From sequence record NC_025447.1: a DNA stretch of 64,000 bases; one strand, given 5' to 3'. Positions 16,391 through 56,556 of the stretch are shown here, piece by piece; within the stretch, counting starts at the first letter, position 1; every line of letters begins with the position of its first letter. The stretch is from Escherichia phage 121Q. Below the pieces are notes generated by a model, which worked only from the letters and a program-made list of their open reading frames with translations, did no database searches and was not told the origin of the DNA. A program made the translations under genes and the position numbers.

Positions 16391-17134
16391 ATGAAACATT
16401 TCTTAGAAGTAACCGTACCTGATGATAAAGATTTATACATTGTAGGTGATTTGCATGGTAATGGTAAACTATGGGATGCTACAGTGAAAGAATTTGGTAT
16501 TACACACAATGATTATGTTTTCAGTGTAGGTGATATTATCGACCGTGGAGAACAAAATTCAAAGCTCCTTTTTGAATTTTTGTTCGGAGAAAATCGTTAC
16601 ATGATTGCAGGTAATCATGAGATGATGTGCGTTGATTCGGAAACACTTCGAGATTGGTATCATTGTTGGATAAGTAATGGTGGTGATAAATTCCTTGATG
16701 AAGTTGGAGGAACAGGCATTCAATTCTTTCGTCAGTACTTAAAAGATCTCCCTATGATTATCCAAATCAATCACCGAGGCTTGAAGATTGGGTTAGTTCA
16801 TGCTGGAGTTCCGTTGGAATATACAACATGGGAACGATTTGTTAATGGGACAAAATCACTTAGTGCTGATATAATTGATAAGTGCTTGTGGGATAGGAAA
16901 ACATTCGATTATTGTAGAACGAATAATACCTATTATGCACCTAAGTTAGATGGAGTGCATTGTGTCTTTAGTGGACATACAGCAGTTACTGATCCACTCA
17001 TTTATGGTAATCGCATTTGGATTGATAGTCAGTTCTTGACGGGTGACTTAACTCTCGCTACTCCACAAAGTGGTGGGATGAGATACTTACGTAAAGAAAA
17101 AGATGAATACTCATTCAATCGTTTCAAAAGGTAA
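16391..17134 (+). CDS. Ser/Thr protein phosphatase-type metallophosphoesterase
   Basis: GDLHGN, GDIIDRG and GNHE motifs in canonical order. Confidence 0.75.
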   Translation: MKHFLEVTVPDDKDLYIVGDLHGNGKLWDATVKEFGITHNDYVFSVGDIIDRGEQNSKLLFEFLFGENRYMIAGNHEMMCVDSETLRDWYHCWISNGGDKFLDEVGGTGIQFFRQYLKDLPMIIQINHRGLKIGLVHAGVPLEYTTWERFVNGTKSLSADIIDKCLWDRKTFDYCRTNNTYYAPKLDGVHCVFSGHTAVTDPLIYGNRIWIDSQFLTGDLTLATPQSGGMRYLRKEKDEYSFNRFKR

Positions 17135-31604: not shown

Positions 31605-31672
31605 TATTGTATGGGACATAATGTCCCATACATGATATAATGTTGTTATCATAATACAGAAGGAGATATAAA

Positions 31673-39099: not shown

Positions 39100-39432
39100 A
39101 TGGATTTAAAGCCAATTGTGGTTAACAAATACAAAGAACCGTATGATGTGTATATTGGACGTGGGTCTAAATGGGGAAACCCATTTACCCATATTAAAGA
39201 TAAACAAACTAAAGCCGAATTCATTGTTAGTACAAGAGAAGAATCAATTGAAAAATTCAGAGAATACATTATTGAACGTATTTCTTGTGGAGAAGTTAAG
39301 ATTGATGAATTACTTGAACTCGCAGGGAAACGCCTTGGTTGTTTCTGTAAACCCAAATCATGTCACGGCGATGTTCTTGTCGAAATAGTGAGTGCAATAT
39401 TAGATGAATTACCAGACGATAATCAAGGATGA
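39100..39432 (+). CDS. conserved phage protein of unknown function (DUF4326-like, recalled from memory)
   Basis: IGRGSKWGNPF and CxCxxxxCHGDVL motifs. Confidence 0.5.
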   Translation: MDLKPIVVNKYKEPYDVYIGRGSKWGNPFTHIKDKQTKAEFIVSTREESIEKFREYIIERISCGEVKIDELLELAGKRLGCFCKPKSCHGDVLVEIVSAILDELPDDNQG

Positions 39433-55438: not shown

Positions 55439-55466
55439 GGGACATAACACATCCTAGTGATATAAT
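55439..55466 (+). promoter_or_regulatory. sigma70-like promoter (GGGACA, 16 nt, TATAAT) upstream of repeat copy B
   Basis: read from sequence. Confidence 0.35.
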
Positions 55467-55523
55467 GTATATTGTAAAATGACAACGGACATTGAAAAAT
55501 GGATAATGAGAACCTACTTCTCT

Positions 55524-56041
55524 TGAAAATGTAAAGGATAGATGAGCTTTACCGTTGTAGCGAACAGCAAAAGAAACCTGTTAGAGTACTGGCATTCAAA
55601 CAAACACGATGTAAGACCACGAATCACGGCGACACGGCTGTATAAAGAACTCCGATAAGCATACAGAGAGTTCCTAGATAGATGTATAAGGTTCGCACCT
55701 TACCAGATTTGCTAAGGGAGTTTAAGAATAGCGGACGCAATTTTACAAGAAAGTTGCGTCCAAAATTTGAGAACAGGTACTACTTTGATCGAATAGAGTT
55801 AGTACTGAGTGCTGTTGATGAAAAGACCAGCGACCGTTGCATATGACTGCGATAGAGAGAAACCGAGCAACCCGCTTTCGCTCTCTAAATTTTGGTACAA
55901 GAAAGATCCGTCCAAAATTTGAGAAATTCGCAATTCGATAATATCCGATGCCATCATCGTCAAGAGAGACTTAATTGTCTCTTTTTTATTACCTTCATTC
56001 CCCTGCGGGGGGATGTAATAGTCCTCAACAAATCCCGTCAA
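55524..56041 (+). ncRNA. candidate large structured noncoding RNA, copy B of the two-copy element
   Basis: same conserved blocks as 856-1310 in the same order; extra insertions; intergenic. Confidence 0.5.
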
Positions 56042-56127
56042 GTTTTTAAAGTACATTATCATTTTCAGAAGGAACTAGTTTACGAAGTAAACGCAGTGAC
56101 TTCTTGAGTTACGAGAGAACGAAGTGA

Positions 56128-56556
56128 ATGAGTAACACAACGAAAATATCCGATAAATCCGAATTAACACAAATGTTATTCAAAGAATATTTTGAGTTTC
56201 AGATAAAAGACGAACAACAATTACCACAGCAATATTTGAAAAGAATTAAAGATCCGTCAGTAATTACTAAAGAAACTAATTTTTATAATAGTATTTTGGA
56301 TTTCGTTAAATCAGTTCATACAACAAGACCTATTGTAGTTTTGTTTTTTGATAAATCTATTCCTTTAGTAGTTCCTGAAAATGTATTTTTTATTTCAGAA
56401 ACTGATTTAAATAATCAAAGTACTGTAAGTAGATTAAGAAATTGCTTACTTGTAGTATGTGATTCTTCTTTGTATAATAACAGAATACTATGGGATAGAA
56501 GTAAACGCAATGCAGTTTCGGAAATGAATCCTGAAATTACCTTTATTATTAACTAA
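56128..56556 (+). CDS. hypothetical protein
   Basis: ORF in track. Confidence 0.45.
   Translation: MSNTTKISDKSELTQMLFKEYFEFQIKDEQQLPQQYLKRIKDPSVITKETNFYNSILDFVKSVHTTRPIVVLFFDKSIPLVVPENVFFISETDLNNQSTVSRLRNCLLVVCDSSLYNNRILWDRSKRNAVSEMNPEITFIIN

Follow-up and report, generated by a model that had tools for sequence, protein, structure and literature searches.

The 64,000-nucleotide window that we analysed, from Escherichia phage 121Q (record NC_025447.1), carries two copies of an unannotated element, and both are members of a family of RNA elements of roughly 470–600 nt. Copy A occupies 743–1318 on the + strand, with a promoter at 743–770, a hairpin and T7 run at 775–806 and a core of 481 nt (838–1318). 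Copy B, our main subject, has a core of 549 nt (55507–56055) and is the most fully decorated paralogue of the RNA family. The genes on either side of copy B (DUF7325/phrog_9016 upstream and phrog_35272 downstream) are complete and belong to unrelated families, and no flanking gene shared or paralogous between copies A and B was found. Searches with nhmmer and a covariance model returned no third copy in the window, which thus holds exactly two. With Escherichia phage slurp01 and PBECO4-type jumbo phages (~350 kb, genus Asteriusvirus), the window shares 98% identity. Copy B recurs at full length and 96–98% identity in 31 independent phage genome records, and its distant orthologues in phages Turkey5 (87%) and A4 (80%) keep both of its boxes and its hairpin, with compensatory changes.

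Copies A and B align with 78% column identity, and their cores differ by 68 nt, close to the ~60 nt given in an earlier note on this DNA that was made from the letters alone. As that note had reported, the box GCGTCCAAAATTTGAGAA is present twice in copy B (exactly at 55756–55773, and with one mismatch, CCGTCC..., at 55908–55925) and once in copy A (1074–1091, two mismatches); these three matches in the window compare with 0.10 expected by chance. The repeat unit around the box measures 30 nt (55744–55773 and 55896–55925, 93% identical), or ~38 nt when one gap is allowed. The hairpin that had been described upstream of the block CCCCTGCGGGGGG, which is common to both copies (56000–56012 in B, 1269–1281 in A), is also there, at 55965–55987: AGAGAC (55965–55970), TTAATT and GTCTCT (55977–55982) are followed by TTTTT (55983–55987), 12 nt 5′ of the block, with a predicted ΔG of −9.4 to −10.8 kcal/mol. 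Copy A lacks this hairpin, as claimed, but has a T7 run of its own directly after the preceding helix.

We built a structure model by aligning 40 non-redundant copies and searching the columns for covarying pairs. The model comprises about 14 helices and two pseudoknots, 78 pairs in all. Standard pairs filled 97.2% of its 2,992 cells, compared with 78.0% in column shuffles (none of 500 reached the observed value) and 38–44% when the partners were slid by 1–3 columns. Changes on both sides were seen in 53 of the 78 pairs and in 557 cells, compared with 149 cells in shuffles. Across the pairs of the family, G·U outnumbered A·C by 224 to 14, demonstrating that the + strand is the strand that folds. 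Copy B taken alone is also predicted to fold better than its own shuffles (z = −3.58). Compensatory pairs on one strand are the general hallmark of a structured non-coding RNA, and it is as such an RNA that the alignment identifies the predicted element.

No conserved open reading frame (ORF) was found in the 40 cores, in which the longest + strand ORF ranged from 23 to 82 amino acids (aa); indels between copies were not multiples of three, and no frame was seen to be kept between copies in the alignments. Mechanically called ORFs of 82–87 aa overlap the RNA at 55799–56062 (−) and 1072–1320 (+), and several public records (for example, PQ390715 and OR699181) place between one and four hypothetical proteins there. 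ORFs annotated on it are very likely to be false gene calls, and the hypothetical-protein annotation of these RNA loci in some genome records needs correction.

Two candidate closing helices were rejected. The pair GATGAG/CNCGTC, proposed by RNAalifold, is conserved, with no compensation apparent by eye, and was left out of the scored model. A leader–tail helix in copy B, in which 28 nt show 75% complementarity (55476–55503 and 56038–56065), did not beat shuffles in duplex energy over 37 copies of the family (mean z −0.4), and this complementarity is probably due to chance or specific to the lineage. A short UGAC/GUCA match between leader and tail recurs in the family and does not covary.

We next describe copy B from 5′ to 3′; every feature lies on the + strand. 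The promoter (55439–55466) consists of GGGACA, a 16-nt spacer and TATAAT with a TG-extended −10, and predicts a transcript start near 55473, from which a variable 5′ leader, delimited by upstream alignments, would extend to the conserved core (55473–55511). The first part of the core (55512–55562) contains hairpin H1 (CTT 55522–24/AAG 55534–36, loop GAAAATGTA), in which all three pairs change on both sides, an invariant GATGAG and then H2 (GCT 55546–48/AGC 55559–61), in which two of three do so. H3 (ACAGC 55564–68/GCTGT 55637–41) is a long-range helix, 100% paired with three compensatory pairs, and reads AGTGC/GCACT and TGAGC/GCTCA in the orthologues of the Turkey5 and A4 comparison. Inside it lie H4 (CTGT 55578–81/ACGG 55626–29; 100% paired, one compensatory pair) and the optional insert V1 (55583–55625), whose length falls into classes of 1, 15, 26, 43 and 51 nt. 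The region 55647–55702 holds H5 (GAACT 55647–51/AGTTC 55669–73), all five pairs of which are compensatory, a conserved GATAGA..TATA linker and H6 (TAAGG...CCTTA, 55687–55702), with stems that vary between AAGG/CCTT, AGG/CCT, GAG/CTC and ATGG/CCAT.

The following region (55711–55774) begins with an invariant AAGGGA (55712–17), and in it H7 (GTTT 55720–23/GAAC 55771–74; all four pairs compensatory) closes box module 1. This module is a 12-bp hairpin formed by GGACGCAATTTT (55733–44) and AAAGTTGCGTCC (55750–61) and followed by CAAAATTTGAGAA, with a ΔG of −16.8 kcal/mol; phage A4 shows a compensatory change in it from GGA/TCC to GGT/ACC. H8, a long hairpin at 55776–55806 with all 12 pairs compensatory, presents in its loop the ATCGAAT (55788–94) that pairs with ATTCGAT (55933–39) to form pseudoknot PK2 (seven of seven pairs compensatory, 99.6% paired). 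The region 55810–55840 holds H9 (TGCTG 55810–14/CAGCG 55828–32), the invariant GACCGTTG and the 5′ strand of pseudoknot PK1 (GTTGC 55836–40), which pairs with GCAAC (55867–71) in the loop of H11.

H10 (TGCGA 55848–52/TCGCA 55928–32) closes a domain, after which comes the 3′ strand of PK2 (55848–55939 in all). Within this domain we found the true partners of the strands from which the earlier note had drawn a covarying stem, AGAGAG...CTCTCT. That stem does not hold up, since it pairs in just 66% of cells over the 40 family members; GAGAG (55855–59) instead pairs with CTTTC (55875–79) as H11, 100% paired, and TCT (55882–84) with AGA (55922–24) as H12, 97% paired. H12 carries box module 2 (55887–55925), with the stem AAATTTTGG (55887–95)/CCAAAATTT (55912–20), the apical loop TACAAGAAAGATCCGT and a ΔG of −12.4 kcal/mol. 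This module, which includes the second repeat copy (55896–55925), is absent from copy A, and in Turkey5 it shows a compensatory change from TTGG/CCAA to TTAG/CTAA. H13 (GATG 55947–50/CGTC 55958–61; region 55947–55961) ends in a conserved CGTCA and is 92% paired, with variation on one side only and hence weaker support. After it come the optional terminator-like hairpin with T-run that we term V4 (55965–55987), and a 3′ part (55995–56040) that holds the G+C hairpin H14 (TCCCC 55999–56003/GGGGG 56008–12, with outer TC/GA pairs) and a conserved tail ending in CAAATCCCGTCA (56029–40).

Two further hairpins with an ACGAAGT apex flank copy B on its 3′ side (56078–92 and 56108–36), the second of which holds the ATG (56128) of the next ORF. 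These are the only intergenic occurrences of ACGAAGT in the window, and most family members have one to three hairpins with this type of apex 3′ of the conserved tail. Those of copy B are kept in Turkey5 and A4, and the second also encloses the likely ribosome-binding site of the ORF at 56128. They may be processing or translational-control signals.

The differences between copies A and B fall at four insert sites, namely V1, box sites 1 and 2, and V4, and among 71 distinct family members these sites are filled or empty in differing combinations, bearing out the proposal of a modular RNA with variable peripheral stems. The box itself forms the 3′ portion of a hairpin module, which fits onto either helix H7 (site 1) or H12 (site 2). 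When the 71 copies were classified with a small hidden Markov model (HMM), the module was confined to site 1 in 35 and to site 2 in 12, occupied both sites in 18 and was absent from both in 6. Copy B has both and copy A only site 1; copy A, in which V1 is short, V4 is lacking and H13 is followed by a T7 run, is the less decorated paralogue. In the bacterial-island copies described below, both sites were filled in all that could be classified (seven of eight bacterial loci). The internal duplication noticed in copy B is therefore not peculiar to it, as 30 of 71 copies have a box at site 2, although its second box is indeed most similar to its own first and the two have an unusual ACAAGAAAG loop in common. 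In the A4 orthologue, the two boxes have diverged from each other. The likeness of the boxes in copy B likely reflects shared ancestry or an old conversion within the molecule inside Asteriusvirus. The layout of copy B is one of several recurring architectures, and its extra stems are not errors. Both extras, the second box and V4, are old, as they are kept in orthologues with compensation and recur across the family.

At the V4 site, between H13 and H14, the linker is 16–25 nt long where there is no hairpin and 45–55 nt where there is one. Among 25 phage copies with V4, a run of 6–7 U was conserved and ΔG ranged from −5.5 to −12 kcal/mol, while the stems differed by lineage (GTACAC/GTGTAC, GATCC/GGGTC and AGTACT/AGTACT). 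In A4, two compensated pairs turn GAGAC/GTCTC into GAACC/GGTTC. The V4 of copy B has a stem of 6–9 bp with three G–C pairs and a U-run of six; island copies have a hairpin at the same site without a U-run. Varying stems beside a constant U-run would fit selection for a terminator-like element.

Of 38 representatives, 34 have a promoter of their own 40–80 nt 5′ of the core, with a TGnTATAAT extended −10 and a −35 of TGAAAC or GGGACA type, and that of copy B is also conserved in the Turkey5 and A4 orthologues. The family promoter matches the 'divergent RpoD-like' class (−35 TGAAACG) described in phages CBB and GAP32, where it lies mostly before DNA-synthesis genes (PMC5259590). Each copy thus reads as a self-contained unit of phage-type promoter, leader, core of about 14 helices and 3′ hairpins. 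The same promoter class (GRRACA/TGAAAC −35 with TGnTATAAT) also occurs at two or more other places in the window, among them 16847–16875 and 31613–31641. In copy A, a hairpin and T7 run (GGTGAC...GTCACC TTTTTTT, 775–806) follows the promoter after ~5 nt, in an order that is conserved in orthologues; the annotation of GAP32 calls the hairpin a Rho-independent terminator.

By BLASTN, the element is present in 60–70 phage records, at about 4.4 places in each: four copies per genome in Asteriusvirus and five in most other Rak2-like genera. The phages belong to the Rak2-like jumbo clade and infect Escherichia, Salmonella, Klebsiella, Erwinia, Yersinia, Serratia, Cronobacter, Pectobacterium and Xanthomonas. 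Pattern scans of genomes and metagenomes yielded further copies on viral and metagenomic contigs of 350–370 kb. Most scan matches were due to chance and lay in G+C-rich bacteria (we estimate ~80 chance matches for a gapped pattern of 19 nt over 596 Gb), and only matches confirmed by nhmmer were kept. Within a genome, copies are spaced 50–150 kb apart. Three of the four copies in slurp01 could be placed, at 135.4 kb (A), 188.0 kb (B) and 266.8 kb, and in each of two metagenomic contigs of 350–370 kb with four mapped copies all four lie on one strand.

The same RNA also occurs, once per genome, in chromosomal islands of Enterobacterales, where its promoter type, leader and 3′ hairpins are those of the phage copies. 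Carriers are Serratia fonticola (a complete chromosome), Serratia sp., Enterobacter chinensis, an Enterobacteriaceae isolate, metagenome-assembled genomes of Buttiauxella and Enterobacteriaceae, and two of 5,426 complete Escherichia coli genomes; the plasmids searched gave no match. In our locus numbering, these copies lie at L237 3691–4150 (−), L168 2859–3403, L249 2479–3021 (−), L220 6321–6862, L223 5403–5902, L182 6463–7037 and L275 20001–20560. An integrase gene, of the tyrosine or the large serine type, lies immediately upstream of the island RNA. Three loci (L168, L249 and L182) have a CI-like repressor gene facing the RNA, with a Cro-like gene next in L168 and L249. In E. coli LR-29-1 the RNA lies in a 10.8-kb island at ffs, together with the candidate defence system PDC-M45. 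Since the flanking genes are unrelated at copy A, at copy B and in the bacterial islands, the function of the RNA appears to be independent of its neighbours. A DUF4326-domain protein is encoded both in the window (39100–39432) and in the E. coli island (L275 22999–23592), with 41% identity over 109 aa; this domain is common in phages.

We somewhat favour, at a little better than even confidence, a free-standing structural RNA, either the scaffold of a ribonucleoprotein (RNP) or an assembly made of RNA alone. Such an RNA would act in trans, and a protein or another part of the RNA would dock onto its box hairpins. In phages, V4 and its U6–7 run would form an intrinsic terminator or attenuator, at which a shorter transcript of ~515 nt would end after H13; a read-through species would also contain H14 and the tail and continue into the downstream gene.

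Several points weigh against this proposal. A simple scan for the terminator consensus missed the V4 hairpin on the + strand, which in our reading, not computed, came about because the maximal 9-bp stem consumes part of the T-run; the stem is also A+T-rich. H14 and the tail, which lie 3′ of V4, are as conserved as the core, a poor fit with efficient termination at V4. Copies without V4 show no clear terminator before the next gene and could be long 5′ leaders. Action in trans and docking by protein are conjecture. The discrete transcript, its ends and the fold of every member are predictions from sequence, and our literature search found no transcriptome of an Asteriusvirus or other Rak2-like phage. 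The structure was also scored on the alignment from which it had been derived, but the shuffle and slid-partner controls and the independent comparison of the Turkey5 and A4 orthologues argue against circularity.

The strongest rival, which we nonetheless consider improbable, is a promoter-proximal leader that acts in cis, like HK022 put or lambda nut: the nascent folded RNA, by itself or together with a phage protein on its box hairpins, would modify the transcribing polymerase, and V4 would be a gate that lets only modified polymerases through into the long same-strand gene arrays beyond. Every copy does lie directly downstream of a promoter and upstream of same-strand genes (all large ORFs between A and B are on the + strand), the order of promoter, element, terminator-like hairpin and genes resembles pL–nutL–tL1, V4-less copies run into the next gene without a terminator, and an infecting phage could activate the island copies, whose promoters are of the same class. 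However, a length of ~500 nt, 14 helices and two pseudoknots far exceed any known antiterminator RNA (to our knowledge none comes near this size, put being ~70 nt), H14 and the tail are highly conserved beyond the supposed gate, and several island copies converge on a CI-like repressor gene and lead no operon. Slightly less credible again is a large ribozyme or mobile RNA, intron-like or self-processing, that has spread between intergenic sites. The multiple copies in unrelated intergenic contexts of phages and integrative islands would suit it, as would joining regions near the pseudoknots that are invariant in 40 of 40 copies (for example, GACCGTTG and CAACCCGCTT) in a manner typical of catalytic cores. 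Yet the element interrupts no gene and has its own promoter, ribozyme models, those of group I and II introns and RNase P included, gave no match even at E ≤ 10, there is no associated reverse transcriptase or homing endonuclease, and neither target-site duplications nor terminal repeats were found.

An element that works as DNA (a replication origin, a site of recombination or packaging, or a promoter–stem-loop cassette) could account for dispersed copies that are co-oriented within a genome, and for promoter-plus-hairpin arrangements at the 5′ side such as 743–806. We think it very unlikely, given that compensation in 53 of 78 pairs extends to long-range pairs and pseudoknots and that the 224:14 excess of G·U over A·C points to one strand that folds, as RNA or as single strand; double-stranded DNA sites need neither property. 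Next to no weight is left for the last alternative, in which the extras of copy B are an assembly artefact or a recent functionless duplication, or the region encodes small proteins. The 93% identity of its two boxes would suit a recent duplication and the hypothetical proteins that some records place on the element would suit a coding region, but both boxes and the hairpin persist, with compensation, in orthologues of 80–87% identity, no ORF is conserved and the indels are not multiples of three. An assembly artefact, which the earlier note had considered, is ruled out by the same architecture in 31 independent genomes and by the diverged, compensated orthologues, and the two-box layout is found in bacterial islands as well.

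The family could represent a new class of large functional RNA common to lytic jumbo phages and the small integrative islands of their hosts. We hold either of two versions of this idea only tentatively and as unlikely overall. In one, the RNA would be a new large ribozyme or would assemble with itself, as an RNA-only homo-oligomer like ROOL and GOLLD in which PK2 makes the kissing contact between molecules. In the other, it would be an infection-responsive RNA: islands with the phage-type TGAAAC promoter would express it only upon infection by a jumbo phage, which would make them satellites or defence islands that turn the phage's own RNA to their advantage or work against it. Large RNAs of bacteria and phages with such extensive conserved structure are rare, and OLE, GOLLD, ROOL and raiA each opened new biology. 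The carriers here are cultivable (jumbo phages of E. coli, Salmonella, Klebsiella, Erwinia, Yersinia, Serratia, Cronobacter and Pectobacterium, and two sequenced E. coli strains), some of the phages are under study for phage therapy, and the family is open to genetics and cryo-electron microscopy (cryo-EM). Its paralogues with differing plug-in modules offer a natural deletion series that separates the core from peripheral stems.

We compared the element with known RNAs. Rfam 15, which includes ROOL, GOLLD, group I and II introns, RNase P, tmRNA and 6S RNA, gave no match at gathering score over the whole window, and copies A and B had only chance matches to small nucleolar and small RNAs at E ≤ 10. 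On the phage and bacterial loci that bear the element, the only Rfam matches were signal recognition particle RNA and STnc450, both away from it. ARAGORN found no tRNA or tmRNA in the window, and our literature search found no paper describing the element. As the ORFs flanking copy B are complete and unrelated and the element has its own promoter, it does not behave as a group I or II intron. The pRNA of phage phi29 (~170 nt, single copy, adjoining the genome end) is also a structured phage RNA that functions through covarying loop–loop pairing, a possible analogy to PK2, but we found no similarity between the two. HK022 put and lambda nut (boxA/boxB) are likewise promoter-proximal, present in several copies per phage genome and built of covarying stems; in both cases a terminator-like hairpin precedes long same-strand operons, and small conserved hairpins could bind a factor. 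Compared with them, our element is at least seven times larger and has two pseudoknots, its sequence is conserved past the terminator-like hairpin, and it also occurs where no operon follows.

Phage PA5oct, from a related jumbo-phage lineage, has intergenic long non-coding RNAs (lncRNAs) defined by RNA sequencing (ncRNA001–004; 236–619 nt), two of which are highly expressed throughout infection (PMC7318152). Like our element, these have no known function. As homologues they were rejected: R1, a covariance model of the central domain, misses ncRNA002 and ncRNA004, and no shared motifs were apparent by eye. The PA5oct loci that we compared were L276 14452–14902 and L277 617–1235, and the one R1 match in PA5oct (E = 0.043) lies outside the annotated non-coding RNAs. 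The wider group of jumbo phages may thus have large non-coding RNAs of more than one class.

ROOL and GOLLD are large ornate RNAs with Rfam families and cryo-EM structures (PMC12286853). They differ from our element in several ways: neither of their Rfam models matches here even at E ≤ 10, the hosts are Gammaproteobacteria rather than Firmicutes or lake and rumen communities, there are 4–5 paralogous copies per genome, and the adjacency to tRNA genes is missing (two of 40 element loci hold tRNAs, more than 3 kb from the element, and the window has none). The resemblances are that all extend over several hundred nucleotides, with many covarying helices and pseudoknot-like long-range pairs, and are borne by phages or prophage-like carriers as apparently free-standing genes of unknown function. 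ROOL and GOLLD also form intermolecular kissing contacts, and PK2 of our element could be one.

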